Notes: generated by a model not told the origin, from the letters alone. 64,000 nucleotides of DNA from Candidatus Omnitrophota bacterium (GCA_016206665.1 JACQRC010000015.1:118-64117); one strand, 5' to 3'; positions 5,170 to 45,766 are shown, counted from the first letter of the stretch. A program made the numbers and translations.

Positions 5170-5177
5170 GCGATCTC

Positions 5178-15520: not shown

Positions 15521-15524
15521 ACCG

Positions 15525-18591: not shown

Positions 18592-18617
18592 CGCGGGGGA
18601 GCTGGAGAGCACACGCC

Positions 18618-21544: not shown

Positions 21545-21558
21545 GCGGAGAGCGAGCG

Positions 21559-23764: not shown

Positions 23765-25578
23765 CACAGCCCATCGTGATCATCGGCAATCATCCGCAGC
23801 GTATCGTGCAGGCGGCCGGCAGGGGACGGAGCCTGCGATATCTGCTGCCGGTCGAAACACCCGAGCTGCGGCGCGTGGCGGAGCGCCTCGAGGCGGACGG
23901 CGCAGCGCAGGAGGTGCCGCGGGCGAGCTGGCATGGGCAGCGGGCGGAGTTTCGCCGTCAGTACATCGCCTGCCTCGGTGCGGTGAATCGTCGGCACCGC
24001 AGCCCCGCGTGGTGGGCAAGGACCTTTACGACCAAGCATGCGCTGTCCTCGCCGTTGTGCCGGCAGATGTTCACCTGTTGGCTGGCCGCCCAGGTGATGC
24101 GCCGCGACCCGGCGTCGTCGATGGTGGTGTTGACGGACGATGCGGTAGTGGCATCGGCGCTGGCGCGCTGGGCGCGGCCCGCCGGCTGGCGGTGCGTCAC
24201 GGCGGTGCGGCAGTCCGGGGGTGTCGGGCAGCGTCTCCGGCGCTCGCGGCTCTGCGTGTTCACGGTGGCGCTGCTGCGGTTCCTGCGCGTGTGGTGGGCG
24301 ACCCGGCACTTACGGCCCCGCGGGTCGGGGGATGAGCACGTGATCCTCCTGAGCCTCATCCACCCGCGCTATTCCTGGACCGCAGACGGCCGCTACCAGG
24401 ATGCCTATTTCGGACGCCTGGTGGACTATCTGGGGACTCGTCAGCCGCCCACGCTCATCCTCGGCGTGTTGGATGGCGCGTGGTGGGAGAATCCGCAGTG
24501 GCTCAAGCGCCTCGACGGCCCGGTTCCCGTTGTGCCGGTGCCGGCCTGCGTGACCTGGCCGGCACTGGTGCGAAGCATGGCGCGAACGCTGCGGGCCTTT
24601 GGCTATCCGGAGACGGTGCAGCGGTCGGTGAAACTGGACGACATGGATTTGACGACGCTGGTCGAGCACGCGATGCGCGATCCGAGACAGGTCGGTCAGT
24701 ATCTGCTCAATCTGACGGTGGAGGAGGCGGTGCGCTTTCTGGCCCGGCGGCTGCGGGTGAGCCGATGCATCTATCCCTACGAGAATCGGGCCTTTGAAAA
24801 ACTGGCGCTGCTGGCGTTCCGCGAGGTCTCGCCGCACACGCGGCTCATCGGCTATCAGCATGCCAGCATCTCGCACAACCATCCCAATCTCTTCTTTGCC
24901 GAGGGGGAAGCCGCCGCAACACCGCTGCCCGATGTCATCATCACGATGGGTGAGATCACCCGTCACTGGCTGGAGCAGGAAGGCCGGTACCCGCCAGGGC
25001 TGCTGCGAGCCGGTTGCGCGTTGCGGCAGCGCACGCTGGAGCGTCGGCCGGAGCCGAAATCCTGGTCACGGCCCGTGCGCCATCTGTTAGCGGCGCTGGC
25101 GACAGGCGGCTGGGAGTACGCCAGGACCTTGGAGTGGTTGCAGGAGGTGGCCGCGGAGCCATCCTATCAGGTGCGCGTGCGTCCCCATCCCGGCATTCCG
25201 CTCGACGAAGCGTTCCGCATCGCGCCCGTGTTGCGCCGGGATTTCTTTTCGGTCAGCAGCGGGTCACTCGAAGACGATCTGCGGTGGGCGGATGTCGTGC
25301 TCTACGCTTCCTCCACCGCCGGATTGGAAGCGATGGCCTGGGGGCTGCCGGTCGTCTATCTCGACCTGGGCGGGGCGATCAACTCCGATCCCATCGTGGG
25401 CGGGGCGGCATTCAAATGGTCGGCCGCCACGCCGGAGCAGTTGCGGGAAATGCTGGATGCCATCGGCGCCCTGTCCGAGGACGAGGCGGCGCGGCAGCGG
25501 GCATTGGCAGGGGAGTACGCGGCGCGGTACCTGCGGCCGGTCACGACCGACCGGCTGCAAGCCTTTGTGGAGGTCTGA
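23761..25578 (+). CDS. Large uncharacterised protein with GT-B-like C-terminal half, copy B
   Basis: GTG 23761 sits in a GTGA overlap; the track start 23266 runs through the upstream gene in another frame. The C-terminal DDLRWADVVLYASSTAGLEAMAWGLPVVYLDLGG is GT-B-like and alignable to the 8567 protein. Confidence 0.45.
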   Translation: MTQPIVIIGNHPQRIVQAAGRGRSLRYLLPVETPELRRVAERLEADGAAQEVPRASWHGQRAEFRRQYIACLGAVNRRHRSPAWWARTFTTKHALSSPLCRQMFTCWLAAQVMRRDPASSMVVLTDDAVVASALARWARPAGWRCVTAVRQSGGVGQRLRRSRLCVFTVALLRFLRVWWATRHLRPRGSGDEHVILLSLIHPRYSWTADGRYQDAYFGRLVDYLGTRQPPTLILGVLDGAWWENPQWLKRLDGPVPVVPVPACVTWPALVRSMARTLRAFGYPETVQRSVKLDDMDLTTLVEHAMRDPRQVGQYLLNLTVEEAVRFLARRLRVSRCIYPYENRAFEKLALLAFREVSPHTRLIGYQHASISHNHPNLFFAEGEAAATPLPDVIITMGEITRHWLEQEGRYPPGLLRAGCALRQRTLERRPEPKSWSRPVRHLLAALATGGWEYARTLEWLQEVAAEPSYQVRVRPHPGIPLDEAFRIAPVLRRDFFSVSSGSLEDDLRWADVVLYASSTAGLEAMAWGLPVVYLDLGGAINSDPIVGGAAFKWSAATPEQLREMLDAIGALSEDEAARQRALAGEYAARYLRPVTTDRLQAFVEV

Positions 25579-26570
25579 TGATGGCCGTGCCTGATCTGTC
25601 ACTCATCTTTCCGGTCCGCAATGAAGCCGGCAACCTCGAGGCGCTCTACACGCGGGTGCGCGACGCGCTGCGCCAGGCGCAGGTCTCCTACGAACTGCTG
25701 TTTGTCGACGACGGCAGCACGGACCGCTCGCTGGAGCTCATCAAGGAACTGCGCGCGCGAGATGGGCAGGTGCGGTACCTGTCGCTCTCCCGTTCGTTCG
25801 GCCATCAGGCGGCGCTCTTCGCGGGGCTGTGCGCGGTGCGGGGCCGGGCAGTCATCATGATGGACGCTGACTTGCAGCATCCGCCGGAGCTCATCCCCGA
25901 GATGATCCGTTTGTGGCGGGAAGGGTACGAGGTCGTCTACACGACGAAGCGCCAGCAGGCACTGCCATGGTGGTGGCGGTGGCAGATGCAGATGTTTTAC
26001 GCCGTCGTGTCGAAGCTGTGCGGGCTCAAGCTCTCGCCGGGCCAGTCCGACTACCGGCTGCTGGACTGCCGGGTGGCGGAGGTCCTGCGGTCCATGCCGG
26101 AGTACAAGAAATTCCTCCGGGGACTGGTCAGCTGGGTCGGCTTCAAGCAGTACGGAATCGAGTACACGCTGCCGGCGCGCCAGGAGGGCCGCTCCCAGTA
26201 CATCTATCGCGACCGCTTGGAGCTGGCCCTTGATGGGATCTTTGCCTTCTCGGTCGTGCCGCTGCGGTTGCTGCTCCTCTTCGGCCTCATCGTCGCCACG
26301 CTGACCTTTCCTTATATCGTGGTGATCGTCGTGCTCGGTGTCGGCCGGTGGCTGGGCAGCCCCGTCTATCTGCCGCCAGGGTGGGCGACGGTGGCCGTCT
26401 CGGTCCTGTGGCTGGGGAGCATCCAGCTGATCGCCATCGGGATCTTAGGCGAGTACATCGCCCGCATCTACGACCAGACCAAGGCCCGGCCGGCGTTCAT
26501 CATTCGCGAGGCATCCGACGCAGGCGCCTCATCCACGATGGCATCGTCCCTGCTGGTCGAGGAGGCGTAG
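25578..26570 (+). CDS. GT2 polyprenyl-phosphate sugar synthase (GtrB/ArnC/DPM1-like, two C-terminal TM helices)
   Basis: TGATG junction. Motifs are LSLIFPVRNE, FVDDGSTD and MDADLQHPP (DxD), with C-terminal hydrophobic helices (LLLLFGLIVATLTF..., VSVLWLGSIQLIAIGILGEY). Confidence 0.85.
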   Translation: MMAVPDLSLIFPVRNEAGNLEALYTRVRDALRQAQVSYELLFVDDGSTDRSLELIKELRARDGQVRYLSLSRSFGHQAALFAGLCAVRGRAVIMMDADLQHPPELIPEMIRLWREGYEVVYTTKRQQALPWWWRWQMQMFYAVVSKLCGLKLSPGQSDYRLLDCRVAEVLRSMPEYKKFLRGLVSWVGFKQYGIEYTLPARQEGRSQYIYRDRLELALDGIFAFSVVPLRLLLLFGLIVATLTFPYIVVIVVLGVGRWLGSPVYLPPGWATVAVSVLWLGSIQLIAIGILGEYIARIYDQTKARPAFIIREASDAGASSTMASSLLVEEA

Positions 26571-26572
26571 GC

Positions 26573-27451
26573 GTGCCAGACACGGCGGTGGTGACGGCCA
26601 CCAAGCGCTGCGTGGTCTGCGGTGCGAGCGCTTTCAGGACCGGTGTGCTCGGCACCCTGGCGCAGTGTGAGCTCTGCGGGCATATCTGCTATCCGGCCCA
26701 GTCGACGGTGTCAGCCGCCGAGCTGTACGGCAACGACTACTTCACCGGCGCCGAATACCTGGACTATTCCTCTCAGCAAGGGACGCTGGCGAAAAACTTT
26801 CGACGGTATCTACGGCTGATGCGGCGGTATGGGGCGGCGGGCGGTCGGCTGCTCGAGGTGGGGTGCGCCTACGGCTTCTTTCTGCAGGAGGCGCGGGAGG
26901 CCTTCCGGGTCGAGGGCATTGACGTCGCCGCCGAGGCTGTCGCCTTCGCGGCCGAGCAGCTGCAGGTGCCGGCCCGGAAGCTTGAGTTTCCCACGCTGCA
27001 GGCGGAGGAGCCCTACGATGTCGTGTGCTTGTGGGATACGCTGGAGCATCTGGCGGAGCCGGACGTCTATATCGCGAAGGCGTCGGAGGTGGTGCGGGAG
27101 GGCGGGCACCTCTTCCTGACCACCGTCGATATCGGCAGCTATCTGGCGCGCGTGCAAGGGCGGCGGTGGCGGCAGATTCATCCACCCACGCATCTGCACT
27201 ATTTTTCGCGGGCCACGATGCGCCGGCTGTTGGAGCGGTCAGGCTTCGAGGTGCTGGGCATCACGGCAGTGGGGACGCACCGCGAGATCACGAATATGCT
27301 GCGGGGGCTGAGCCTGTTCGGCAAAAGCCGGGTTGTCCGGCAGCTCGCCGAGCAGATGTTGGAGAAGACCGGCAGGATGTGGGGGCATACCAGCGTGTAT
27401 CTGAACCTGGGAGACAACATGTTTGTCGCGGCCCGGCGGCGACGGCCGTGA
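26573..27451 (+). CDS. Class-I SAM methyltransferase with N-terminal CxxC...CxxC zinc-ribbon (2 of 7)
   Basis: GTG 26573 lies 2 nt after the upstream stop. The ribbon is CVVCGAS...CELCGH and motif I is RLLEVGCAYGFF. Confidence 0.75.
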   Translation: MPDTAVVTATKRCVVCGASAFRTGVLGTLAQCELCGHICYPAQSTVSAAELYGNDYFTGAEYLDYSSQQGTLAKNFRRYLRLMRRYGAAGGRLLEVGCAYGFFLQEAREAFRVEGIDVAAEAVAFAAEQLQVPARKLEFPTLQAEEPYDVVCLWDTLEHLAEPDVYIAKASEVVREGGHLFLTTVDIGSYLARVQGRRWRQIHPPTHLHYFSRATMRRLLERSGFEVLGITAVGTHREITNMLRGLSLFGKSRVVRQLAEQMLEKTGRMWGHTSVYLNLGDNMFVAARRRRP

Positions 27452-29274
27452 GCACACTCACGGCTCCACCGCAGACGGTGACGCTACCGCGGCTCTCCAC
27501 GCACGGCTTGATGCAGACGGCGCTCCATCGCTGGCCGCTCTGGCTGGCCTGCCTCTTCAGCCTCGCGCTGGCGCTGCCGACCATTCAACCCCGCATCGCC
27601 GATCCCAATCTGATTGTCTATCAGAATGCGGACGAAGGCGGGATGATGGATTTGATGTGGTCCTATTACAGCGGTGAGCGGCGGGACAGCTTTCAGTGGG
27701 ATGTCGATTATGGGCTGGAGATGGTCTGGCTCTCCGGCCTGGCGCGTGTCGTCCTGGCGCCTGCGATGACGGTGACACCGGTGACGCTGGCGGTCCTGTT
27801 GCGGTGGTTGCATCTCGCCGCATGGCTGGCGGCGCTCGGCCTCATGTGGCGACTCGTGGGACGCCATGTCGGACGCGGCTATCCGCAGGCCGTGGCGGTC
27901 GCCCTGCTCGCCGTGCGGCCGGCCTTCGTGCATCTGACGACCTACTGGCAACCGGAGCCGGTGGTGCTGGCGTTGCTGCTGCTGGGGCTGGACGAGGCCT
28001 TGACCCACGCCGAGCGGCCCGCCTGGTGGCACATCGTGGCGGCGGTGGCCTGTGCCTCGCTGGCCTTTCTGGTGAAATACGCCGGGCTCTTTCTCCTGCC
28101 GGCGGTTGCGGCGTCCCTGGTGCTGGCAGCGCGGCGCACCCCGGGAGGTCCCGGCGCGGTGCCGCGCGTGCGCGGTGCGTGGCTGGTCTACGCTCTCGTC
28201 GGCGCGGTGATGGTGGGCTGCACCCTGACGGCCCTGGCGCACTACGTGCGGCATGCGACCGGCCGCACCTGGCTGCAGGAATACGGATGGTGGGGGAGCC
28301 TCACGGTGAATCCTGCGGCGATGGCGGTGTGCGTGGCCGGGGCGGGCTTGATGGGCCTGTCGCTGCTGTGCTGGCTGGTCAACCGCATCCGGGAACAGCA
28401 ACTCTGGAACACCATCAACAGCGCCCTGATGATGGTGGGGGGGCTCTTCGCCGCGTGGACGCTGCTGTTCGGATGCTGGTGGCTTGGGCATCCGGAGCGA
28501 TGGCTGTCCGCTTACAGCCAGATGGCGCCGGCCGCGCTGTCGACGAGGGAGGCCTTCCTCCAGCGGCTGGCGGGCCGGGTGCAGGCGTTTGATCCGTTGC
28601 TCGTGCTGTTGGCGGCCATCGTGGGTGGCGTCGCGATGACGGCCAGAGGCCGCCGCGTGATGTCTGAGACGATGGCGCACGACAAACGGAGGGTCCTCTT
28701 GTGGTTTGTCGTCCCGTTCATCGCGGTCATGGTGGCTCCGGTCCGCGTAGAGCGGCACCACATGCTGCCGTTCGTGGCGGCGGCGGTCGTGTGGATCTTG
28801 AGCAGCCTGCGGGGGCTTCGCAGCTTGCGGTTCCTGGCAGTTGCGGTGCTGGTGCTCGATCTGCTGCTCAACGCGGCGATCGTGGTGAGGGAACGGTCGT
28901 ATCAGGCCCGCCAGGGGGACGACATCGCGTTCGCGTTGGCCGGCTGGTGGGCAGGGCACATCCCACGCAGTGCCACCGTCGTGGCCGACCATTACCGGCG
29001 CGTCTACGTGCCGTCCGGCCATCCGAAGCTCAAGGTCTTCCGGGGCTCCGAGCATCTGGATAGCTGGGTCGAGCAGCTGCGCGATGCCGTGTCGCGATAC
29101 CATCCCGACTACGTGTACTACAACGCGGCTCCGGTGGCCGGCGCCATCGTGCCGCCGATTGAGGAGTTGCTGCCACGCACCAGCGTCGAGCTGGTACGGC
29201 AGTTCAGCAGCGAGGGCCGCGGCTACCGGCGCCTGGAGGGAGACCGATTTCTCATCTATCGGATCCTGCGATGA
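27448..29274 (+). CDS. Polytopic membrane protein, GT-C (ArnT/PMT_2-like) glycosyltransferase candidate, 1 of 3
   Basis: GTG 27448 sits in a GTGA overlap. It has many hydrophobic segments, an acidic first-loop motif NADEGGMMD, and a soluble C-terminal domain. The family call is tentative. Confidence 0.55.
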   Translation: MSTLTAPPQTVTLPRLSTHGLMQTALHRWPLWLACLFSLALALPTIQPRIADPNLIVYQNADEGGMMDLMWSYYSGERRDSFQWDVDYGLEMVWLSGLARVVLAPAMTVTPVTLAVLLRWLHLAAWLAALGLMWRLVGRHVGRGYPQAVAVALLAVRPAFVHLTTYWQPEPVVLALLLLGLDEALTHAERPAWWHIVAAVACASLAFLVKYAGLFLLPAVAASLVLAARRTPGGPGAVPRVRGAWLVYALVGAVMVGCTLTALAHYVRHATGRTWLQEYGWWGSLTVNPAAMAVCVAGAGLMGLSLLCWLVNRIREQQLWNTINSALMMVGGLFAAWTLLFGCWWLGHPERWLSAYSQMAPAALSTREAFLQRLAGRVQAFDPLLVLLAAIVGGVAMTARGRRVMSETMAHDKRRVLLWFVVPFIAVMVAPVRVERHHMLPFVAAAVVWILSSLRGLRSLRFLAVAVLVLDLLLNAAIVVRERSYQARQGDDIAFALAGWWAGHIPRSATVVADHYRRVYVPSGHPKLKVFRGSEHLDSWVEQLRDAVSRYHPDYVYYNAAPVAGAIVPPIEELLPRTSVELVRQFSSEGRGYRRLEGDRFLIYRILR

Positions 29275-30191
29275 GATCCATCCCACGGACGGCGAGGGAT
29301 GAGGGCGCACCCTGCCTGGCCTGCGGCCATCCCGGCTCCGCCCACAGCACCGACCAGGCGCTCGCCCTCTATCGTTGCCGCGCGTGCACGCACATGTTTA
29401 CCGGGGTGCCAGCCGGGCATCTCGATGAGCTGTACACACCAGCCTACTATCTTGAGGAGCATAAGAATTGGTTTACGCATCCCAACACGGCCCTGTTCCA
29501 GTGGCTCTACGAACAGATGGAACGCTGGGCGGCTGGTCGCTCGGCTGCGCTGCTGGACGTCGGCTGCGGCCGGGGCGATTTGTTGAAATATCTGCGGTCC
29601 CGTGACCGTCGGCTGACACTGGTGGGTATCGACGTCACGGCCAACACTGCACCAGGGATTACCTTTGTCCAGGGCGATTTCCTGGCGCAGAGGCTCGAGC
29701 AGGAGTTTGATGTCATCTGTGGCCTGGCGGTGCTCGAACATGTTGAGCAGCCGGATCGCTTCCTGGAGCATGCCGCCGCGCATCTGCGGCCGGGGGGCCT
29801 CTTATTTCTGATGACCGTGAATAACGACGGCGGGTTTTACCGGGTGGCGCGTGCGCTGCGCCGTGTGGGGTTTTCGGCCGCCTATCGCCGCCTGTACAGC
29901 CCGCACCACCTGCACCATTTCACGAACCGGTCCCTGCGGCAGCTGGTCGAGCGGTATGGGTTCCGTGTCCTGGCGCAGCGCAACCACAACACCCCGCTTT
30001 CGGCGGTGGATGTGCCGGCAGCACGACCGCTCCTCGCAGGGTGCTACCGGCTGGCGGTGGCGGCGCTGTTCACCGCGTCGGCCATGGTGCGCGATGGGAT
30101 CCTCCAGACGGTCATCTGCGAAAAGGCTGATGGACGACTCCGACCAACAATGCAGGTGGACATGGCGAGGGAGGGCAGTCATGTTGCGTAA
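29271..30191 (+). CDS. Class-I SAM methyltransferase with N-terminal zinc-ribbon (3 of 7)
   Basis: ATGA overlap. The ribbon is CLACGHP...CRACTH and motif I is ALLDVGCGRGDL. Confidence 0.75.
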   Translation: MRSIPRTARDEGAPCLACGHPGSAHSTDQALALYRCRACTHMFTGVPAGHLDELYTPAYYLEEHKNWFTHPNTALFQWLYEQMERWAAGRSAALLDVGCGRGDLLKYLRSRDRRLTLVGIDVTANTAPGITFVQGDFLAQRLEQEFDVICGLAVLEHVEQPDRFLEHAAAHLRPGGLLFLMTVNNDGGFYRVARALRRVGFSAAYRRLYSPHHLHHFTNRSLRQLVERYGFRVLAQRNHNTPLSAVDVPAARPLLAGCYRLAVAALFTASAMVRDGILQTVICEKADGRLRPTMQVDMAREGSHVA

Positions 30192-31320: not shown

Positions 31321-32212
31321 GCATCGGCTGGCCCTCATCATCCCGACGAAGGACCGGCCGCAGCCGTTGACGCGGTTGCTCGCGTCGGTGCGTCGGCAGA
31401 CGCGCGGCCCCGACCAGGTGATCATTGTGGACAGCAGCGCCGCGCGCACGGACGATTGGGTCCGACGGTTCGGAGCGCAGGGGCCGCTGCGCTACCTGTG
31501 GACCCAGCCGCCGTCGCTCGTGAGACAAAAGAACCTCGGCATCGCAGCGCTGGATCCCGGCATCACGCTGGTGGCGTTTCTCGACGACGACTTGGTGCTG
31601 GAAGACGACACGCTGGAGGCGATGCTCGCGTTCTGGGCCGCGGCTGGATCCGACGTGGGCGGGGCGGGGTTGGTCATCCCCGACGCGCGGCCGCATCGGG
31701 GGCTGTGGTTCAAACGGCCGTTCGGCCTCGATGGCCGGGCGAGCGGATGCGTGCTGCGCTCCGGGTATAACACGCCGCTGCGGCCGGCCGCGCAGCCGTA
31801 CCGAGTCCAGTGGTTGAGCGGGGGGGCCTCCGTCTGGCGGCGTGACGTGGTTGATGCCGAGCGGTTTGACGAATGGTTCACCGGCTACAGTTATCTGGAG
31901 GACATTGACTACAGCCTGCGCGTGGGCCGGCGCTATCAGATGGTGGCGGTCCCGTCGGCGCGCGTGCGCCATGACACCCCGATGATTGCGGCGCGCCAAC
32001 CCTTCCGGCTGGGCCGGTGGGAAGTGACGAACCGGTTCTACCTGGCAACGAAGCATCCCGAGCTGTCACGCAGTCGATGTCTCTGGGCCCTCGTGGGACA
32101 GGGAGTGCTGAACGTGGCGCGGGGCTGTGTCGCCTGGCGCTCGGGGGGATTATTGCGCGTTGCCGGGAACCTCGTGGGCTGGACACGCCTCGTGGGTGGG
32201 GTGTCTCGATGA
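31313..32212 (+). CDS. GT2 family glycosyltransferase
   Basis: Motifs are LALIIPTKDRP, VIIVDSS and FLDDDLV (DxD). Confidence 0.8.
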   Translation: MTEHRLALIIPTKDRPQPLTRLLASVRRQTRGPDQVIIVDSSAARTDDWVRRFGAQGPLRYLWTQPPSLVRQKNLGIAALDPGITLVAFLDDDLVLEDDTLEAMLAFWAAAGSDVGGAGLVIPDARPHRGLWFKRPFGLDGRASGCVLRSGYNTPLRPAAQPYRVQWLSGGASVWRRDVVDAERFDEWFTGYSYLEDIDYSLRVGRRYQMVAVPSARVRHDTPMIAARQPFRLGRWEVTNRFYLATKHPELSRSRCLWALVGQGVLNVARGCVAWRSGGLLRVAGNLVGWTRLVGGVSR

Positions 32213-32841
32213 GCAGCCGACCATCGCTGGCAGATCGGTTGTGGCACTGGTGCTATCGGTGCTTGGAGCAGCCGTACCTGTTCGAATTGTCGCGGTTGCC
32301 GCAGCGTCGGATGACGCAGCGGCTGATCGCCCAGGAGTTGCCACCCACACCCGGGCGGCGTCTACTCGACATCTGCTGCGGCATCGGTACGTACCGAGTC
32401 AGCAAGCCGGACACGTTCTACATCGGCCTGGACCGGGAACCGTCGTATGTCGCGTACGCGGCCGCCCGTCACAACGGCCATCCCGGCACGACCTTTCTGG
32501 TGGCGGACGCCACGGCGCTGCCGTTTCGGCCGCAGACCTTCACCGACGTGATGTGGCTCTACAGTCTGCACCATTTCGCCGACGATCCGGCGCGGGCGAT
32601 CTTGAGCAGCGTCGCCCGGATGCGGCCGCGCCGGCTGCTCATTTTGGATGCGGTGGGCGACCATCTGCGCGGCCACAAGCGGATGCTGGCCGCGCGCGAC
32701 CGGGGGGCCTATGTGCGGCCGATCGCAGCACAACGGGCGCTGATTGAGCGGGACTGGGTGATTGAGACCTCCGGCGTGGAAACGCATCCGGTGGTGCTGG
32801 ACACGGTCTACTACCGGTGCGTGCCGAAATTGGGAGATTAG
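32209..32841 (+). CDS. Class-I SAM methyltransferase (4 of 7)
   Basis: ATG 32209 is in an ATGA overlap. Motif I is RLLDICCGIGTY, followed by LVADATALPF. Confidence 0.7.
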   Translation: MSSRPSLADRLWHWCYRCLEQPYLFELSRLPQRRMTQRLIAQELPPTPGRRLLDICCGIGTYRVSKPDTFYIGLDREPSYVAYAAARHNGHPGTTFLVADATALPFRPQTFTDVMWLYSLHHFADDPARAILSSVARMRPRRLLILDAVGDHLRGHKRMLAARDRGAYVRPIAAQRALIERDWVIETSGVETHPVVLDTVYYRCVPKLGD

Positions 32842-35846: not shown

Positions 35847-37135
35847 AGCGCAAGCTGATGGCGGCAGCCGGACTGGTCACGTTCCTGCTGCGGCTGGGCC
35901 TGGTACTCGCCACGCAGAGTTACCGGCATCCCACGACGTGGGAGTTCGAGCGGGTGACGCAGAATATGATGGCGGGGCGCGGTTTCATGCTGCCGCATCT
36001 GGGGATTCCGTACTATTCCCTGCATCCGCCGCTCTATGATCTGCTGTCGCTCATGGTCTACACCCTCGTCGGGCATCACCAGGCGGCCATCCTGGTCATG
36101 CAGGCGGTCTTTAGCAGTCTGCTGGCCGCCCTGACCGTGCATCTGGCCCATCGGTTCACCGGGTCGCTGGCGGCCGGCATCCTCGCGGGAGGCTTGGTGG
36201 CGACCCATCCGGGTCTGCTCTACTACGACATCCACCATCTCCATCCCCTGAGTTTTGGGGCGCTGCTCTTTGCCCTCATTCTCTGGGCCGCCATGCGCTG
36301 GTGGGTGTACCGCCGCATCCGGGATGCGGCCTGGCTGGGCGCGGCCGTGGCCCTCGCCATGCATGAGCGGGGCACCGCCGGCCTGTTCCTGCTGCCGGCC
36401 ATGGTCTGGATGGGATGGCATCTGCGCGTCCACCGGCGGCGTGTGGCCGCGTCCCTCGGCGCGCTCGTGGCCGGGTGCGTCCTCGTGCTGGCCCCCTGGA
36501 CGATCCGTAACTATCTCGTCCACGGGCGCTTCGTGCTCATGATCACGCTGAAGAACGAACATCTGTGGCTGGGGAACAATCCGCGGTTCTCCGGCTCAGC
36601 GCTGACCCAGGCCAACGAACCCATTTTCAACGCCATCCCACCTGAGCTGCTCAGCCGCTTGGAGGCTCAAACCAATGAGGTGGACCAGCAGCGAATCTTC
36701 GGGGAGGTAGCGTGGGCCTACATCCGCCAGGATCCCGGCGCCTTCGTGGTGCGCACGCTGCGCAAGCTGTACTACTTTTTCTGGTTCTCGCCCCAATCCG
36801 GGTTGTGGTACCCGCAGCGCTACCTGCACTGGTATCGTCTCTACTATGGGTCAGTGCTGGGGCTCGCGATGGTGGGCTGGGTCCGAAGCGTGCGGGCCGC
36901 CGCCCCGCGGACGCGGGCCATGGCTTGGGCGATGGTGGGACTGATCCTGAGTGTTGCGGTGGCTCAGAGTCTGTGCTATGTGGAAGGCCGGCACCGCTGG
37001 GGGATTGAACCGCTCCTGCTGATGTTTACCGCTGGCGGCGGCGCGTGGCTGGTGGAGCGACTCCGGCAATGTTGGTGGACGATGCGGGCGAACGCAGGGC
37101 CGTTCGTCATCGGGGATGCGCGACGTTGGAAATAG
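35843..37135 (+). CDS. GT-C (ArnT/PMT_2-like) membrane glycosyltransferase, 2 of 3
   Basis: ATGA overlap. The N-terminus is MKRKLMAAAGLVTFLLRLGLVLATQSYRHPTTWEFERVTQNMMAGRGF, and the protein is polytopic and hydrophobic throughout. Confidence 0.7.
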   Translation: MKRKLMAAAGLVTFLLRLGLVLATQSYRHPTTWEFERVTQNMMAGRGFMLPHLGIPYYSLHPPLYDLLSLMVYTLVGHHQAAILVMQAVFSSLLAALTVHLAHRFTGSLAAGILAGGLVATHPGLLYYDIHHLHPLSFGALLFALILWAAMRWWVYRRIRDAAWLGAAVALAMHERGTAGLFLLPAMVWMGWHLRVHRRRVAASLGALVAGCVLVLAPWTIRNYLVHGRFVLMITLKNEHLWLGNNPRFSGSALTQANEPIFNAIPPELLSRLEAQTNEVDQQRIFGEVAWAYIRQDPGAFVVRTLRKLYYFFWFSPQSGLWYPQRYLHWYRLYYGSVLGLAMVGWVRSVRAAAPRTRAMAWAMVGLILSVAVAQSLCYVEGRHRWGIEPLLLMFTAGGGAWLVERLRQCWWTMRANAGPFVIGDARRWK

Positions 37136-37866
37136 CGACGTACGAAGTTGAGGCTGCTGTCGAAGCGACGCATTGGTGGTTTGTGGCCCGGCGGCGGCTG
37201 CTCGCCAGCGTGATCCGCACGCTGGTCGTTCCCACGGAGTCGCCCGTCCTTGACATCGGGACGAGTACGGGGAGCAATCTGCGCTTGCTCCAGGACCTCG
37301 GCTACCGGAATGTGGTGGGCGTAGATACCAGCGACACCGCCATCCGTTACTGCACCGACAAGGGGTTCGGGTCGGTCCGCCACGGCGATATGCGTCAATT
37401 GCCGTTTGAGCGCGGTCGATTTCAACTCATCCTGGCGACGGATGTGCTCGAGCATATTGATGATGACCTCGGGGCATTGGCGGAATTGACGAGAGTCCTG
37501 GCTCCAGGAGGCACGGCCATCGTGACGGTGCCGGCCTTCCCCTGCCTGTGGGGTTTGCAGGATGACGTCGCGCACCACAAACGGCGATACCGGATGAAAC
37601 CCTTTGCGGCGCGTCTGCGTGCGGCCGGATTGTCTTGCCGAGAACAGTTCCATTTCAATTACCTCTTATTCGGACCGATTTGGTTGGCGCGCCGGTTGAT
37701 CCGCTTGTTCCGGATCTCAGTCATGAGTGAAAACCAGATCAATGCTCGCTGGCTCAACCGCTTCCTGACGACGATCTTTACCTTCGATGTCTGGTCGGCG
37801 CGCTGGTTGCGACCGCCGTTTGGGGTGTCCATCCTGGCCGTGGCACATAAGGAGTCGTCAACCTAA
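37126..37866 (+). CDS. Class-I SAM methyltransferase (5 of 7)
   Basis: Motif I is VLDIGTSTGSN, followed by VVGVDTS and ILATDVLEHIDDD. The start is uncertain: TTG 37126 gives a 10-nt overlap and ATG 37069 gives a 67-nt overlap. Confidence 0.65.
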   Translation: MEIATYEVEAAVEATHWWFVARRRLLASVIRTLVVPTESPVLDIGTSTGSNLRLLQDLGYRNVVGVDTSDTAIRYCTDKGFGSVRHGDMRQLPFERGRFQLILATDVLEHIDDDLGALAELTRVLAPGGTAIVTVPAFPCLWGLQDDVAHHKRRYRMKPFAARLRAAGLSCREQFHFNYLLFGPIWLARRLIRLFRISVMSENQINARWLNRFLTTIFTFDVWSARWLRPPFGVSILAVAHKESST

Positions 37867-40014: not shown

Positions 40015-40862
40015 AGAGCGCAGATGCGGTGCCGTCGCACGTCTTCGTCGTCATCCCCGCCTACAACGAAGCGCTCAATCTGCCGGCCTTGCTGACAGGC
40101 GTCCACCAGGTGCTGGCGGCGCAGCAGGAGTCGATGACCCTGATCGTCGTCGATGACGGCAGCGAGGACGAGACCGCGGAGGTGGTGCGACAGCTGGCCG
40201 TGACGCGGCCCATCGAACTCCTCCGTCATGCGCAGAATCGCGGGGTCGGAGCCGTGTTCCGCACGGGATTCTCGGCCGCCTGCGCACAGGCGGCTCCTCA
40301 CGATGTCATCGTGCTCATGGAAGGGGATGGGACGAGCGATCCTGCGGTGTTGCCGGCGATGCTGGGCCGAATCCACCAAGGCGCTGATCTCGTGATCGGC
40401 TCTCGTTACCGGCCTGGCGGGGGATACGGGGGATTTTCGGTGCGCCGGATGGCGCTCAGTCTGGGGGCCAATCTCCTGTTGCGTCTGCGATTTCCCATGG
40501 CCGGCGTCCGTGACTACACGATCTTTTTCCGCGCCTATCGAGCCGGCCTCTTGCAGCGAGGCTTTCAGCGCTTCGGCGAGCGTCTCACGGAACTGCGGAC
40601 CTTTGCCTGTAACGCGGAGCTGCTCATCAAGCTGCGCGCCCTGCGGCCGAACATTGCCGAGGTGCCTCTGCGCTATTGTTATGGGGTGAAACGCGGACGC
40701 AGCAAGCTGGCGGTGCGGCGGACGATTGCCGAATATCTGGCCTTCATGGCGACCGCACGAACCCGCCCGTGGTCGCGGCTGTCTGGGGTGGCTGACGGTG
40801 ACGAGGCCCCATCCCTGGTGCCAGCCGACGCACGCGCTCCGCAGGAGGGGGTACTCCCATGA
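40011..40862 (+). CDS. GT2 DPM1-like glycosyltransferase
   Basis: ATGA overlap. Motifs are VFVVIPAYNE, VVDDGSEDET and MEGDGTSDP. Confidence 0.8.
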   Translation: MKSADAVPSHVFVVIPAYNEALNLPALLTGVHQVLAAQQESMTLIVVDDGSEDETAEVVRQLAVTRPIELLRHAQNRGVGAVFRTGFSAACAQAAPHDVIVLMEGDGTSDPAVLPAMLGRIHQGADLVIGSRYRPGGGYGGFSVRRMALSLGANLLLRLRFPMAGVRDYTIFFRAYRAGLLQRGFQRFGERLTELRTFACNAELLIKLRALRPNIAEVPLRYCYGVKRGRSKLAVRRTIAEYLAFMATARTRPWSRLSGVADGDEAPSLVPADARAPQEGVLP

Positions 40863-41848
40863 CCGCCGGCAGAACCGGAGCCACGACACTCCCGCCGAAC
40901 GCGCCGGAGCTGGAAACCGTGGCCTGCAATCTGTGCGGCGGCGATCAGGTGGCAGAGCTCTTTGCGGCGAACGCCTCCCTGGCGCAGCGACGCGAGGGCC
41001 GGCTGCGGTGCACCGATGATGGCCTCGGGCAGCATGGCCGGATCGTGCGTTGCCGGCGCTGCGGTCTCGTGTATACCAATCCCCGGTGCCGGCAAGGATT
41101 GATTCACGAGGCCTATGAGCAGGTGGAGGACCCGACCTACGTGGCAGAGACCGAGGGCCGGCTGCTCACCTTTGGACGTGCGCTCGATCTGCTGGAGCAG
41201 CACCACCCGGTCCGCGGGCGTTTGTTGGACGTGGGCTGCTATACAGGGGTGTTCTTGCAGGTGGCCCGCACGCGCGGCTGGGAGGTGGCGGGTCTCGAGC
41301 CCAGTCGCTGGGCGTGCGACGTCGCGGCCCGGCAGACGGGACTGGCGGTGCAGGCGGGCACGCTGGCCGGCGCGCCATGGCCGCCGGCCGGGTTTGACGT
41401 CATCACGCTGTGGGACGTGCTGGAGCATCTCACCGATCCGCTCGGCGATCTGCGCAGGATGGCAGCACTGCTGGTACCCGGGGGCCATCTGGCCCTGACG
41501 ACCGTGGATATCGGCAGCCAGAGCGCCCGGTGGCTCGGCACGCGGTGGTGGTGGCTGATGGAGATGCACCTGTATTACTTCACGCGTGACACCGTCACCC
41601 GGCTGCTCCGCCAGGCGGGGTTCGAGGTGGTGCTCATCGAGCCGCACGTGCGCGTGGTCAGCCTGCGCTATCTCTGGAGCCGGCTGGCACCGTATCTGGG
41701 CGGTGCGGCACGGCTGCTGGAGCGCGCCGGCCGCTGGTGGCGCTGGAACGACTGGCATGCGACCATCACGGGAGCGGGTCTCATGACCGTGATCGCCCGC
41801 AAGCCGATGGGAGAGCCGCCCGTTGTGGGCAGGACGGACCAGCCATGA
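40859..41848 (+). CDS. Class-I SAM methyltransferase with N-terminal zinc-ribbon (6 of 7)
   Basis: ATGA overlap. The ribbon is CNLCGGD...CRRCGLVYTNP and motif I is RLLDVGCYTGVF. Confidence 0.75.
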   Translation: MTAGRTGATTLPPNAPELETVACNLCGGDQVAELFAANASLAQRREGRLRCTDDGLGQHGRIVRCRRCGLVYTNPRCRQGLIHEAYEQVEDPTYVAETEGRLLTFGRALDLLEQHHPVRGRLLDVGCYTGVFLQVARTRGWEVAGLEPSRWACDVAARQTGLAVQAGTLAGAPWPPAGFDVITLWDVLEHLTDPLGDLRRMAALLVPGGHLALTTVDIGSQSARWLGTRWWWLMEMHLYYFTRDTVTRLLRQAGFEVVLIEPHVRVVSLRYLWSRLAPYLGGAARLLERAGRWWRWNDWHATITGAGLMTVIARKPMGEPPVVGRTDQP

Positions 41849-43716
41849 TTCGCGGCGAGAACATCCTGTGCATCTCCTCGATTGACTGGGACTTCATCTG
41901 GCAGGGCCACCAGGAGATCATGTCCACCCTGGCCGCCCAGGGCAACCGCGTCTTGTTTATCGAAAACACCGGCGTGCGCCGGGTGCGGCTGTCCGACTGG
42001 TCCCGCCTGCAGCGGCGCCTCCGCAATTGGCGCAAGGGCATCGGCGGCATCCGGCAGGAGCGCGAGCGGCTCTACGTCTACTCGCCGCTGGTGCTGCCCT
42101 TTCCCTATTCCCGGCTGGCGCGCCGGATCAACCGGTGGCTGCTGCTGCGGACGATCCGCCGCTGGATGAAGGCGATGGACTTTTACCATCCAATCATCTG
42201 GACTTTTTTGCCGACGGCCATCACCATCGACCTCGTCCGCCAGGTGGACTACAAGCTGCTCATCTACTACTGCATCGACAGCTTCATCGACAGCTCGGCG
42301 GCCGCGAAGCGCATCGTCGAGAGCGAACGCCGGCTGATCGCCATGGCCGACCTCGTCTTTGTCACCTCCCATCGCCTGCAGGAGCACTGCCGGCCGCACA
42401 ATGCCGCGGTGCACGTCTTTCCCTTCGGGGTCAGCAGCAAGTGGTTCGACGGGAGTCAGCCGGCCGCCGGCGAGGCCCCGCCGGACATCGCCGCCATCCC
42501 GCATCCGCGGATCGGGTATGTAGGCGGGTTGCATCAGTGGGTGGATCAACCGCTGCTCGCCCAGCTCGCGCAGCGGCAGCGCGGGTACTCCTTCGTCTTT
42601 GTGGGCCCCATCCAAACCGACGTGGCCACGCTGCAGCGACAGGCCAACGTCCATTTCCTCGGCCAGAAGCCGGCCGAGCAGCTGCCCCAGTACATTCAGG
42701 CCTTCGATGTCTGCCTGATTCCCTATCGACTGACCGACTACACGCACAGCGTCTATCCCACCAAGCTGAACGAGTACTTGGCGCTGGGCAAGCCGGTCAT
42801 CTCCACGGCGCTGCCGGAGGTGAGCCACTTCAACGAGCGCCACGGTGCCCTCGTCCTGTTGGGCAGGACACCGGAGGAATTTGCCCAGCTCGTCGACCGC
42901 GCCCTGCATGACACGGGCGACGGCGAGCTCTTGGAGCGTCGGCGCTCCGTGGCCCGCTTGAATACCTGGGATGTCAAAATGGCATCGATGAGCGCACTGA
43001 TCGCCGAGGCGATCCAGCGCCGGCAGACGGCGCGCGCCAGCGGCTGGCAGGAGGCGGTGGTGCGCTGGATCCGGCGCTCACGGCACCAGTTCCTGCGCTG
43101 GGCGGTGGGCAGCGCCCTGCTCTACGGCCTGGCGTTTCACACGCCGCTCGTCTGGTGGGCGGCCAGCCCGCTGAAGGTCGCCGATCCGCTGCGGCCGGTC
43201 GATGCGATCATCGTCCTGGGTGGCGGCGTCGGAGAATCGGGCCGGGCCGGCCAGGGGTATGAGGAGCGCATCCAGTACGCGGTGCAGCTCTACCGGGACG
43301 GGTACGCGCCGGCGCTCATCTGCTCCTCCGGCTACGTCTTCGTGATCCAGGAGGCCGAGGTCATGAAGGCACTGGCCGTGTCGCTGGGGGTGCCGGAGCA
43401 GGCGATCATCCTGGAGCAGCGCTCCGCCAACACCTATCAAAACGCCGTGTACACGGCCGAGATTTTGCGCCACCGGGGCTGGCACTCCGCGATGGTGGTG
43501 ACGAGTCCCTACCATGCGCGCCGCGTGACCCTCGTCTATCAGACGGTCGCACCCGACCTGACGGTGCTGTTGGCGCCGCTGCCCCACAGCGTCTTCTTCG
43601 GTGGCGGCGGCCCACCCGTGCAGCTGCGCCAGATGCAGGCCATCCTGCATGAATATGCGGGCATCGTGTATTACCGATTCAAGGGCTACATTCGACCACA
43701 CCGTCAGGCAGGGTGA
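41845..43716 (+). CDS. Fusion: TuaH-like GT-B glycosyltransferase + TM segment + DUF218 (YdcF/SanA/ElyC-like) domain
   Basis: ATGA overlap. The N-terminus NILCISSIDWDFIWQGHQEIMSTLAAQGNRVLFIEN is of the GT4/TuaH type. The hydrophobic segment is FLRWAVGSALLYGLAF. The C-terminus DAIIVLGGGVGE...YAPALICSSG...TSPYHARR is DUF218-like. Confidence 0.65.
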   Translation: MIRGENILCISSIDWDFIWQGHQEIMSTLAAQGNRVLFIENTGVRRVRLSDWSRLQRRLRNWRKGIGGIRQERERLYVYSPLVLPFPYSRLARRINRWLLLRTIRRWMKAMDFYHPIIWTFLPTAITIDLVRQVDYKLLIYYCIDSFIDSSAAAKRIVESERRLIAMADLVFVTSHRLQEHCRPHNAAVHVFPFGVSSKWFDGSQPAAGEAPPDIAAIPHPRIGYVGGLHQWVDQPLLAQLAQRQRGYSFVFVGPIQTDVATLQRQANVHFLGQKPAEQLPQYIQAFDVCLIPYRLTDYTHSVYPTKLNEYLALGKPVISTALPEVSHFNERHGALVLLGRTPEEFAQLVDRALHDTGDGELLERRRSVARLNTWDVKMASMSALIAEAIQRRQTARASGWQEAVVRWIRRSRHQFLRWAVGSALLYGLAFHTPLVWWAASPLKVADPLRPVDAIIVLGGGVGESGRAGQGYEERIQYAVQLYRDGYAPALICSSGYVFVIQEAEVMKALAVSLGVPEQAIILEQRSANTYQNAVYTAEILRHRGWHSAMVVTSPYHARRVTLVYQTVAPDLTVLLAPLPHSVFFGGGGPPVQLRQMQAILHEYAGIVYYRFKGYIRPHRQAG

Positions 43717-43740
43717 CGCCATCAGAGAGGGTGACGACGC

Positions 43741-44337
43741 ATGCGAGTGATTGATGCCTCAGGCCGGCTGTTCGGGAAGATCAACCTCATCGATTTCTGC
43801 TGTCTGGCTCTCGTGGCCGGCGTGGGCGCGCTGGTCGTGGCGGGCCGGATGCATCTGAAGATCGCCGCCCCCCGTGACGTCGTGTACTTTCAAATGGAGC
43901 GGCCGCTCACCATCGAGCAGTGGCACCAGTACAAAGCCGGCTTCGTCCCGCTCGTGCTGGATGTGGAGGTGATCTGTCCAGGGATGTCTGCTGAGGAAGT
44001 AGCCGTCCTGAAGCCGGGGGAGCGCCAGGTGGACGAACACGGCCGGGTGCTGCTGGAGGTGCTCAGCGTGGAGCCACCGACGGTCCACACCCGCCCGGTC
44101 GATCTGGAGGGCGGGCTCGTGCTCCAGGTTCCGGTGCAGGGGCAATGGCGCGTCAAGGCCCTGCTCCGGCTGCATGGGGGGTTGGAGGATCGGCGCTTTT
44201 ATTTCCAGTTTGTGCCGGTCCAAAAAAACTTGTCGATCCCGATCGAGATCCGGGGCCGGCGATTCTTTGGGAATGTGCAACAGGCCGCGTTTCCCCCCGG
44301 CGGGCCGACGCCGGTGCCGGCCCTGCCCTCCTCATGA
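43741..44337 (+). CDS. DUF4330-like membrane-anchored protein
   Basis: ATG 43741 follows a 24-nt spacer. The N-terminus MRVIDASGRLFGKINLIDFCCLALVAGVGALVVAG matches the characteristic DUF4330 start as I remember it. Confidence 0.5.
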   Translation: MRVIDASGRLFGKINLIDFCCLALVAGVGALVVAGRMHLKIAAPRDVVYFQMERPLTIEQWHQYKAGFVPLVLDVEVICPGMSAEEVAVLKPGERQVDEHGRVLLEVLSVEPPTVHTRPVDLEGGLVLQVPVQGQWRVKALLRLHGGLEDRRFYFQFVPVQKNLSIPIEIRGRRFFGNVQQAAFPPGGPTPVPALPSS

Positions 44338-44783
44338 GCCTCGTGTGGCAGCGCGCGTGGGCGACGAGCTGGTTGCAGCGCTGGACGCGGCCTCCGGGCG
44401 GTCTCGGCCGCCTGCCGGAGGAGAGTGTCGCGGTGAGGACCTGGCGCGCGGCCTGGCAGACGATGACGCGATGGTGGCGTGTCCAGGGCGAGCGGAGCTG
44501 GTGCGTGGCGTGGTGGCGGCGGCAACGGCTGGAGTGGTCCGCCGCGGCCACGACCGCGGCGGCCTCCTGGTCGCTCGGTATCCTGTTGGGCTACGGCGTG
44601 ACCTGCTGGATCCTGCATCGGGCCCCGACGCCGCTGGAATGGGTGGGGCTGACGGTGGTATGTAGCCTGGGCCTGGTAGGCTGGGGAATATCACTGTCGT
44701 GGCGGACGCTGGTGCAGGACAGCTGGGTGGCGCGCCATGCCTTCCAGCGCTCCGGAAACGGGTTCCCTCACGGAGAACGATGA
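44334..44783 (+). CDS. Small Trp/Arg-rich protein with two predicted TM helices (unknown family)
   Basis: ATGA overlaps occur at both ends (44334 and 44780). Third positions read by eye are far more G/C-rich in this frame than in the competing frame (44174..44665). I count 18 Trp in 149 aa. Hydrophobic stretches are SLGILLGYGVTCWIL and VGLTVVCSLGLVGWGISL. Confidence 0.5.
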   Translation: MSLVWQRAWATSWLQRWTRPPGGLGRLPEESVAVRTWRAAWQTMTRWWRVQGERSWCVAWWRRQRLEWSAAATTAAASWSLGILLGYGVTCWILHRAPTPLEWVGLTVVCSLGLVGWGISLSWRTLVQDSWVARHAFQRSGNGFPHGER

Positions 44784-45766
44784 ACGCGCACACCTTGACG
44801 AGATCGTGGCGCTGTCCCGTTTGCAGCGGAGCGCTGATCGCGGAGGCGAGCCGGCTGCGGTGCGGCTGTGGTGCCGACTATCCGATCATCGCCGGCATTC
44901 CGCGATTGCTCCCTGCCGGCGGCGCAGGGTCGGGCGCGGCGGCGCACCGCGAGATGATGGAACGGACGCGCCAAAGCTTCGGCTTCCAGTGGACCCGGTT
45001 CGGAGAAATGGTCTGCGACTTCGAGGAGAATTTCTTGAACTACGTCCAGCCGCTGCCGCCGGAGTTCTTCCTCGGTAAGCGAGGCCTCGACGCGGGCTGC
45101 GGCTTTGGGAGGCATTTGTTCAACGCCGCCAAGCTGGGGGCGGAGATGGTGGGCATCGACCTGAGCGCCGCGATCGATGTGAGCGCCCGCAACACCGCGC
45201 AGCTGCCCAACGTCACCCTGGCCCAGGCGGACATCTACCATCCGCCGCTGGCCGACGGGAGTTTCGATTTTGTCTATTCCATCGGTGTGCTGCATCACCT
45301 GCCCGATCCGGAGGCCGCGTTTCAGCGATTGGCACGCCTCGTCAAGCCAGGCGGCACGATGGCGATCTGGGTCTACAGCAAGCATCGCCGGCTGACACGG
45401 CATCTCCTCGAGGCGGTGCGGCGCGTGACCGCCCATCTGCCGCATCCGGTGGTGAAGGCGCTCTCCTGGCTGGCGGCCTCGATCGAGTGGTGGGGGTATA
45501 TCCGGCCCTATCAGCTGCTGCATCGTCTGCCGGGTCTCGGCCCTTGGGTTGAGCGGTGGACGCTGTCGCGGATCAAGGTCTATGCCGCCTATCCGTTTCA
45601 GGTCTCCTATGCCGACTGGTTTGACCGGCTGGCCGCGCCCATCCGCTTTTATTATGATCCGGAGGAGCTAGACAGCTGGTTCGCGCGCGCGGGGTTGGGC
45701 GAGCCGCAGCTCTCGCCGACAGGCAATTATGGCTGGCGGGCGGTTGGGGTCAAGCCGGCGTCATGA
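44780..45766 (+). CDS. Class-I SAM methyltransferase with Trm112-like N-terminal zinc-ribbon (7 of 7)
   Basis: ATGA overlap. The ribbon is CPVCSGAL...CGCGADYPIIAGIPRLL and motif I is GLDAGCGFGRH. Confidence 0.75.
   Translation: MNAHTLTRSWRCPVCSGALIAEASRLRCGCGADYPIIAGIPRLLPAGGAGSGAAAHREMMERTRQSFGFQWTRFGEMVCDFEENFLNYVQPLPPEFFLGKRGLDAGCGFGRHLFNAAKLGAEMVGIDLSAAIDVSARNTAQLPNVTLAQADIYHPPLADGSFDFVYSIGVLHHLPDPEAAFQRLARLVKPGGTMAIWVYSKHRRLTRHLLEAVRRVTAHLPHPVVKALSWLAASIEWWGYIRPYQLLHRLPGLGPWVERWTLSRIKVYAAYPFQVSYADWFDRLAAPIRFYYDPEELDSWFARAGLGEPQLSPTGNYGWRAVGVKPAS

Follow-up and report, generated by a model that had tools for sequence, protein, structure and literature searches.

The 64-kb contig of a Candidatus Omnitrophota bacterium analysed here (referred to as the window; GC content 65.8%) carries two overlapping genes at positions 43741-44783, lodged between a glycosyltransferase fusion and a methyltransferase gene. 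Gene 1 encodes a DUF4330-like membrane protein and gene 2 encodes a small membrane protein that is exceptionally rich in tryptophan (Trp) and arginine (Arg). Database proteins identical to the pair bear the locus tags HY597_01085 and HY597_01090. Comparison of homologous loci indicates that 44334-44783 is almost certainly a genuine protein-coding gene, and it is this second gene, its relatives, and its possible function that concern us. The features of the locus are as follows.

43741-44337, plus strand: gene 1, 198 amino acids, a DUF4330-like bitopic membrane protein.
44334-44783, plus strand: gene 2, 149 amino acids plus stop, a Trp/Arg-rich small membrane protein (NCBI tag HY597_01090, annotated as hypothetical).
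44334-44337, plus strand: ATGA, in which the stop codon of gene 1 overlaps the start codon of gene 2 by four nucleotides (translational coupling).
44780-44783, plus strand: ATGA, an overlap where gene 2 ends and the methyltransferase gene begins, with GGAG 7 nucleotides upstream.
44780-45766, plus strand: downstream class I S-adenosylmethionine (SAM)-dependent methyltransferase, 328 amino acids, soluble (Methyltransf_11, E=1.6e-24).
41845-43716, plus strand: upstream fusion of a family 4 glycosyltransferase (GT4, TuaH-like) with a DUF218/ElyC-like domain, from Pfam and NCBIfam matches.
43725-43731, plus strand: Shine-Dalgarno-like GAGAGGG, 9 nucleotides 5' of the gene 1 ATG, read from the sequence.

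The closest relatives of the pair lie on a 1,059-bp metagenome contig (L001), which encodes a gene 1 homologue (P0003, 86% identity) and, downstream of it at 835-1059, an ATGA junction followed by a relative of gene 2 (75 open codons, 72% identity) that differs from gene 2 by a single 3-bp indel, in-frame. When the ratio of nonsynonymous to synonymous substitution rates (dN/dS) was computed by the Nei-Gojobori method between the window and L001, using 72 codons for gene 2, the annotated frame of gene 2 gave 0.25, against 2.37 and 0.88 for the other two forward frames and 0.58-1.15 for the three reverse frames; the neighbours gave 0.32 (gene 1) and 0.29 (upstream gene). These ratios indicate that gene 2 is under purifying selection. 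The original prediction had preferred this frame to an overlapping one at 44174-44665, and the homologues bear the choice out. GC content by codon position is 0.62/0.65/0.85 in the annotated frame, with a third-position value of 0.65 in the alternative, and the alternative, whose dN/dS is 0.88, lacks conservation and is broken by a stop codon in L001. Moreover, the annotated frame alone is open in all four loci at which relatives of gene 2 were found, the remaining frames having stops in at least one of them, and cross-locus BLOSUM scores are 243, 198, and 292 in the annotated frame versus at most 151, 109, and 204 in the others. Gene 2 is nonetheless the fastest-evolving of the three genes. 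Its divergence from L001 is above that of its neighbours (dS 0.71 versus 0.23; dN 0.17 in the N-terminal half of gene 2 versus 0.075 in gene 1), on the small sample of 72 codons, and this excess could come from noise in the alignment around the indel or from a segment that truly evolves faster.

The composition of gene 2 is its most distinctive property. The protein contains 18 Trp (12.1%), 17 Arg, no lysine (Lys), and seven acidic residues (Asp plus Glu) in 149 amino acids; on recount, this and every other count in the original prediction proved correct. The Trp residues occupy positions 5, 9, 13, 17, 37, 41, 47, 48, 56, 60, 61, 68, 79, 92, 103, 117, 123, and 131. Within residues 1-70, an i,i+4 spacing of Trp occurs five times where 1.8 would be expected (P=0.015, without correction for the eight spacings that were tested), and an internal triplication of a WxxAW motif is marginal, with one pair at P=0.03 and the others not significant. 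Among the 35 window genes supported by Pfam, Trp averages 2.3% and reaches at most 5.7%.

Such a composition raises the alternative that gene 2 is not a gene, in which case the region would be a spacer, or the true gene would be 44174-44665 or an antisense open reading frame (ORF) at 44332-44793, and the Trp and Arg would be an off-frame by-product. The genome does supply material for this argument: translated in the +1 frame, the same 35 genes yield 5.4% Trp and 16.7% Arg, and the Trp content of this reading is high because CTG-G yields many TGG codons in GC-rich DNA. The second-position GC content of gene 2 (0.65) is also atypical for genes, and the composition of residues 1-71 fits a +1 off-frame model marginally better than an in-frame model. 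A further stretch of 149 codons with 18 TGG lies near 27680 on the plus strand, off-frame inside a PMT_2-like gene (27025-29274), where it is interrupted by stops; it illustrates that the CTG-G-rich genes of this genome yield Trp-rich off-frame readings. However, the Trp content of gene 2 exceeds chance, with a probability of at least 18 Trp in 149 residues of 1.3e-8 at the 2.3% rate and 1.2e-3 at the 5.4% rate, and 12% Trp is more than twice the off-frame level. Furthermore, the indel is in-frame, and the hairpin described below and the Trp positions are kept in relatives down to 38-40% identity. An off-frame or overprinting origin of gene 2 found no real support in a composition-likelihood test.

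When 1.84 billion representative proteins were searched exhaustively with phmmer, two full-length relatives were recovered, namely P0004 (138 amino acids, 38% identity, E=9e-11) and P0006 (127 amino acids, approximately 40% identity, E=4.5e-8), encoded on contigs L002 and L003. On each contig the gene is preceded by a homologue of gene 1 (43% identity in L002 and 53% in L003) and followed by a homologue of the downstream methyltransferase with its zinc ribbon. The order of DUF4330-like gene, Trp-rich gene, and zinc-ribbon methyltransferase is thus common to the gene 2 loci, and most of the junctions within it are four-nucleotide start/stop overlaps. As the original prediction had described, ATGA overlaps are present at both ends of gene 2 in the window, where the gene 2 start is not preceded by a Shine-Dalgarno motif; the gene 1/gene 2 junction is likewise ATGA in L001 and is GTGA in L002 and L003, and the gene 2/methyltransferase junction in L003 is GTGA. 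Every member of the family contains 11-12% Trp, approximately 9%-15% Arg, and a C-terminal hydrophobic hairpin of two helices. Conservation of the Trp positions had been proposed as a check, and the positions are largely conserved, nine of the 18 being invariant in the three full-length members.

Beyond these loci, the searches returned very little. When 5.8 billion clusters were queried by a word-indexed search, the gene 2 sequence returned only itself, a family profile added nothing to the three full-length members already known, and gene 1 returned itself plus the one 86% homologue. An alignment scan of genome contigs with gene 1 gave no relatives, and scans of genomes and metagenomes with a methyltransferase alignment gave only outgroups. 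Gene 2 had no match among plasmids (tblastn), in Pfam, NCBIfam, PADLOC, or Rfam, or among Protein Data Bank (PDB) folds searched with Foldseek. The family alignment matched Pfam at chance level only (best E=0.1, one member each), as did sequence searches of the PDB (a sortase at E=0.92 and, with the family alignment, TMEM141 at E=0.22). No paralogue or remnant of gene 2 was present in the rest of the window or in L004-L010, and scans of the region for Rfam families, promoters, and terminators gave nothing meaningful. One further candidate, P0005 (3265 amino acids, E=2e-10 against gene 2), was discarded because its similarity was judged to be due to chance or composition: it is a giant acidic repeat protein that aligns through five copies of a Trp-containing extracellular module with 'AAWQEILRWTE'. 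A literature search on Trp-rich small membrane proteins in polysaccharide synthesis found nothing relevant. With four loci among approximately 15 billion predicted proteins, gene 2 represents a previously undescribed family that is new to curated libraries and very narrow.

The downstream methyltransferase is the best conserved of the three genes and served as an anchor for locating outgroup loci. Its identity is 65% to the partial product of L002 over the alignment, with a near-invariant core block, and falls to 54% in L004 and 49% in L007. In L004, an Acidobacteria metagenome-assembled genome (MAG), a 281-amino-acid DUF4330-like gene (5051-5896) lies directly upstream of the methyltransferase gene (5893-6966), its TGA overlapping the methyltransferase GTG (GTGA). 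The encoded protein has the DUF4330 N-terminal signature and an extra IPT/TIG domain, and it is related to gene 1 both at the N-terminus and in its C-terminal domain (E about 5e-5 each). In L007, a Joint Genome Institute (JGI) contig, the same DUF4330-like C-terminus (1-75) is followed by GTGA and the methyltransferase from position ~73. The genes upstream of the methyltransferase differ in L005 and L009, and no DUF4330-like or Trp-rich ORF was found upstream in L008. Since L004 and L007 join the DUF4330-like gene straight to the methyltransferase gene, this coupled pair is the older two-gene module, and the Trp-rich gene is a lineage-specific addition to that module or has been lost elsewhere. 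Even apart from gene 2, the arrangement in L004 and L007 suggests that glycan clusters share a conserved module of two genes that is so far uncharacterised.

The protein encoded by gene 1 begins with a short basic cytoplasmic N-terminus that bears the DUF4330 signature MRVIDASGRLFGKINLID, followed by one transmembrane (TM) helix at ~14-35 and a beta-rich body of ~160 amino acids that is probably extracytoplasmic. Its label in the original prediction as DUF4330-like holds in part. Residues 1-32 match positions 1-33 of the 167-position PF14221 profile above the gathering threshold (28.2 bits against a cut-off of 27.6, E=2.5e-6), and the body lies outside the domain model. P0003 scores 27.1 bits, just under the threshold of 27.6, and the ORF at L003 3-452, which is without its N-terminus, has no PF14221 match. 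Gene 1 thus shares with DUF4330 the pattern M-x-[VI]-ID-x-x-GRLFG-x-[IL]N-[LI]-ID followed by one TM helix, an N-terminus that the L004 relative has as well, and differs in its beta-rich body, which PF14221 does not match. The DUF4330 family is itself uncharacterised, and a literature search found no paper that mentions it. An AlphaFold2 model of gene 1 (predicted local distance difference test, pLDDT, 43) was too poor for fold comparison.

The gene 2 product can be divided into three predicted segments.

44334-44546, plus strand: residues 1-71, Trp/Arg-rich (12 Trp, 12 Arg), predicted cytoplasmic and interfacial from AlphaFold2 secondary structure, hydrophobic moment, and charge.
44547-44702, plus strand: residues 72-123, helical hairpin with TM1 at ~72-95, the five-residue loop RAPTP, and TM2 at ~101-123.
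44703-44780, plus strand: residues 124-149, short basic tail (4 Arg), predicted cytoplasmic from hydropathy and charge.

The two hydrophobic helices that the original prediction placed after the Arg-rich N-terminal half therefore correspond to residues ~72-95 and 101-123. Equivalent TM segments, with a similarly short loop, were located in P0004 and P0006 by hydropathy and octanol-scale windows. Conserved residues of the hairpin include Y87, G88, W92, L94, G116, W117, and W123 in the helices and R96, P100, and E102 in or next to the loop. Because Arg plus Lys are distributed as 12 in residues 1-71, one in the loop, and four in the tail, the positive-inside rule predicts that both termini face the cytoplasm, and we consider it probable that the product is an inner-membrane hairpin of this orientation. 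AlphaFold2 places helices at 2-18, 32-52, 56-95, 100-118, and 123-140, with pLDDT of 71-80 in the hairpin helices; only the secondary structure of this model is usable.

We infer that the first ~70 residues form three helices (2-18, 32-52, and 56-71, the last continuing into TM1) in the cytoplasmic interface of the membrane. Helix 2-18 gathers four Trp in one stripe, with a Wimley-White interfacial free energy of approximately -5 kcal/mol, and helix 32-52 reaches a hydrophobic moment of 0.69 (residues 32-50), its Trp face lying ~140 degrees from its Arg face. In such an arrangement, the Trp side chains would reside in the interface and the Arg residues would point toward lipid phosphates or the cytoplasm. 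The Trp/Arg segments had been described at the outset as typical of membrane-interface or carbohydrate-binding peptides. The former part is upheld in that amphipathic, interface-seeking helices are predicted, but binding of carbohydrate outside the cell is unlikely because 12 Arg in the N-terminal segment against one in the loop predict a cytoplasmic location for the Trp region.

All 64 kb of the window are occupied on one strand, and the content reads as a surface-glycan factory. It includes three NeuB paralogues, a cytidine monophosphate (CMP) transferase, radical-SAM/SPASM enzymes, two AsnB-like amidotransferases, GT2, GT4, and GT9 enzymes, three PMT_2-type enzymes, a WbaP-like initiating transferase, a Wzy_C protein, and six class I methyltransferases. 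Among the ORFs scanned, genes 1 and 2 are the only ones in the right half without an enzymatic signature, as had been noted originally, and the scanned ORFs of the window include no recognisable Wzx flippase or ATP-binding cassette (ABC) exporter. Immediately upstream of the pair, the glycosyltransferase fusion matches DUF218 (4.8e-30) and Glyco_trans_1_4 (1.2e-14) in Pfam and TuaH (2.9e-35) and ElyC (1e-5) in NCBIfam; its likely ATG at 41845 overlaps the stop of the preceding methyltransferase (ATGA), and its C-terminal part is 94% identical to L001 at the DNA level. DUF218/ElyC-like domains are linked to undecaprenyl-phosphate-dependent envelope biogenesis. The 24 nucleotides that separate the fusion from gene 1 (43717-43740) form a rare true intergenic gap, the only one at this locus; they hold the GAGAGGG motif and are unchanged in L001. 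Downstream, the methyltransferase has an N-terminal CxxC...CxC zinc-ribbon-like segment and no TM or hydrophobic segment (maximum 19-residue Kyte-Doolittle hydropathy, KD19, 1.05). Four-nucleotide ATGA or GTGA overlaps at 40859, 41845, 44334, 44780, 45763, 46956, 53038, and 58007 link most consecutive genes in the right half, which as a whole resembles a single super-operon whose genes are coupled in translation.

Other genes of the window bear on the nature of its product. The NeuB-family paralogues lie at 1010-2161, 18540-20420, and 21337-22653, one of them fused to a cytidylyltransferase, and the radical-SAM/SPASM, PhyH, ATP-grasp, and GNAT genes that accompany them suggest an elaborate modified nonulosonic-acid glycan. 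The class I SAM methyltransferases (26348-27451, 29271-30191, 32017-32841, 37045-37866, 40859-41848, and 44780-45766) imply a heavily methylated product. Several long plus-strand ORFs have no Pfam match at E<=1e-5 (1989-3233, 8567-10534, 11558-12646, 13710-14642, 14645-15520, 15321-16514, and 23266-25578); some of these may be real uncharacterised genes, possibly with export functions, and others may be spurious overlaps of GC-rich DNA.

The chance that the gene 2 product has a role in this glycan module is, judging from its context, about even. The same context points weakly to an inner-membrane, non-enzymatic accessory subunit of the glycan-methylation step as the most likely role. It is possible by analogy, if rather doubtful, that this subunit is specifically a tether, which would keep the soluble methyltransferase, the DUF4330-like partner, or both on the side of the membrane where the lipid-linked glycan is assembled. 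A fuller version, which we regard as unlikely, is that a young, lineage-restricted gene was inserted between the two coupled genes, or arose where they meet, and now acts in trans as an interfacial adaptor. The Trp stripe of such an adaptor would sit in the cytoplasmic leaflet and its Arg face would grip either the methyltransferase, which is soluble, or the pyrophosphate-sugar head of the lipid-linked glycan, so that methylation would be coupled to the membrane and, by way of the hairpin and the gene 1 protein, to the periplasm.

Several observations weigh against an accessory role of this kind and against the structure on which it is built. The four-nucleotide overlaps are an operon-wide rule, and the coupling of gene 2 therefore argues for co-expression and not for a specific complex. 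The methyltransferases of L004 and L007 manage without a gene 2 protein, which is therefore not essential to the module. The family comprises four loci, all but one of them on contigs of ~1 kb, and the N-terminal half of gene 2 is the fast-evolving part described above, with an oddly high dS. As for the structure, the topology was assigned from hydropathy and the positive-inside rule alone, and the AlphaFold2 model, built on a three-sequence alignment, is of low confidence (pLDDT 65; predicted template modelling score, pTM, 0.28).

Among the alternatives, one that is improbable to about the same degree as the adaptor is that the target of the gene 2 product is the lipid-linked glycan or the membrane itself and not the methyltransferase. 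It could bind the head group of undecaprenyl-pyrophosphate-linked sugars through Arg-phosphate and Trp-sugar contacts and pass it on to a flippase or polymerase, or it could disturb the bilayer locally in the way of Trp-rich segments that precede TM helices. This reading corresponds to the flippase accessory factor of the original prediction; a scaffold, also suggested there, is possible too. The position of the Trp/Arg interfacial helices immediately before TM1 is consistent with such activity, and the window leaves room for it, given that no dedicated Wzx or ABC exporter was recognised in the ORFs that were scanned and that several large ORFs have no Pfam match. The idea is nevertheless purely compositional, finds no echo in similarity to flippase accessories, and sits awkwardly with the fact that gene 2 always adjoins the methyltransferase and DUF4330-like genes and never a flippase.

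Less probable again is that gene 2 is merely a passenger: a quickly evolving gene for a small membrane protein of recent origin, perhaps formed de novo where its neighbours meet, which the operon tolerates although it contributes little or nothing to the pathway. The scarcity of the family, the absence of the gene from the conserved pair in L004 and L007, its rate of evolution, and its odd composition would all suit a passenger. Against this, a dN/dS of 0.25 and the retention of Trp, hairpin, and coupling across members that are 38-40% identical argue for a maintained function, and off-frame translation does not account for the composition.

It is very improbable that gene 2 encodes a toxin-, holin-, or antimicrobial-like membrane-active protein unrelated to glycan synthesis. 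Cationic amphipathic Trp/Arg segments are a hallmark of membrane-active peptides, and the protein is small with two TM helices, yet its gene is embedded in a biosynthetic operon, with coupled biosynthetic genes on either side and the same neighbours in all loci, and there is no phage, defence, or immunity context, PADLOC match, signal peptide, or plasmid homologue. Least probable of all is the reading in which there is no gene here or the gene lies in another frame, which the frame-wise dN/dS and the cross-locus frame comparison refute in practice.

If an accessory role were borne out, the gene 2 product would be a compact case of a separate mini-subunit, made almost entirely of interfacial residues, that brings a soluble glycan-modifying enzyme to the membrane. 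To our knowledge, few natural proteins would be richer in Trp than one that keeps a content of 11-12% under selection across a length of 127-149 residues. A lineage-specific gene inside an otherwise conserved overlapping pair is also useful for studies on the origin of small proteins. No long-standing question is answered by these findings, and practical impact is limited because the host is an uncultured MAG.

The gene 2 product can finally be compared with several known systems. Co-polymerases of the Wzz type have two TM helices that flank a periplasmic coiled-coil domain of at least 150-200 amino acids, while the loop of gene 2 is ~5 residues. The suggestion in the original prediction that the pair might be a chain-length determinant, in the Wzz/polysaccharide co-polymerase (PCP) sense, is thus excluded by the short loop in gene 2, P0004, and P0006, which leaves no large periplasmic domain.

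PgaD, which acts with PgaC, is a small two-TM synthase subunit with N-terminal TM helices and a C-terminal cytoplasmic part that pairs with a GT2 synthase and cyclic di-GMP. The two proteins are alike in size (~130-150 amino acids), in combining two TM helices with a cytoplasmic segment, and in being encoded in a glycan operon beside a partner enzyme. They differ in that the order of these parts is reversed in gene 2, whose neighbours are a methyltransferase and a DUF4330-like gene, and there is no sequence or fold match between them.

Trp-rich interfacial segments, as described by the Wimley-White interface scale, are also known from peptides of the indolicidin/tritrpticin class and from viral pre-TM regions. 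Gene 2 shares with these the dense Trp combined with Arg, the predicted partitioning to the interface, and a Trp-bearing helix that runs into a TM helix. Those segments are short secreted peptides or parts of fusion proteins, whereas gene 2 encodes an integral protein with a predicted cytoplasmic Trp region. Antimicrobial peptides of the Trp/Arg-rich type are shorter than 40 amino acids, secreted, cationic, and free of TM anchors; at 149 amino acids, with two TM helices, no signal-peptide-like N-terminus, and a gene internal to an operon, the gene 2 product does not belong among them.

The terminating kinase/methyltransferase WbdD of the Escherichia coli O9a O-antigen is held at the membrane by a C-terminal amphipathic helix (PMC3447403). 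In WbdD the anchor is in cis, coiled coils set chain length, and export follows an ABC-transporter pathway, whereas the candidate anchor here is a separate hairpin protein without sequence similarity to WbdD, and no coiled coil, kinase domain, or ABC transporter was recognised among the scanned ORFs. The methyltransferase itself has neither anchor nor TM segment, and the system is therefore not of the WbdD type. What the two have in common, by analogy only, is a methyltransferase that is associated with amphipathic helices, those of gene 2 being Trp/Arg-rich and encoded beside a soluble enzyme. As such, the gene 2 product may be a separate-subunit, or trans, counterpart of the amphipathic anchor that WbdD-type enzymes carry in cis.

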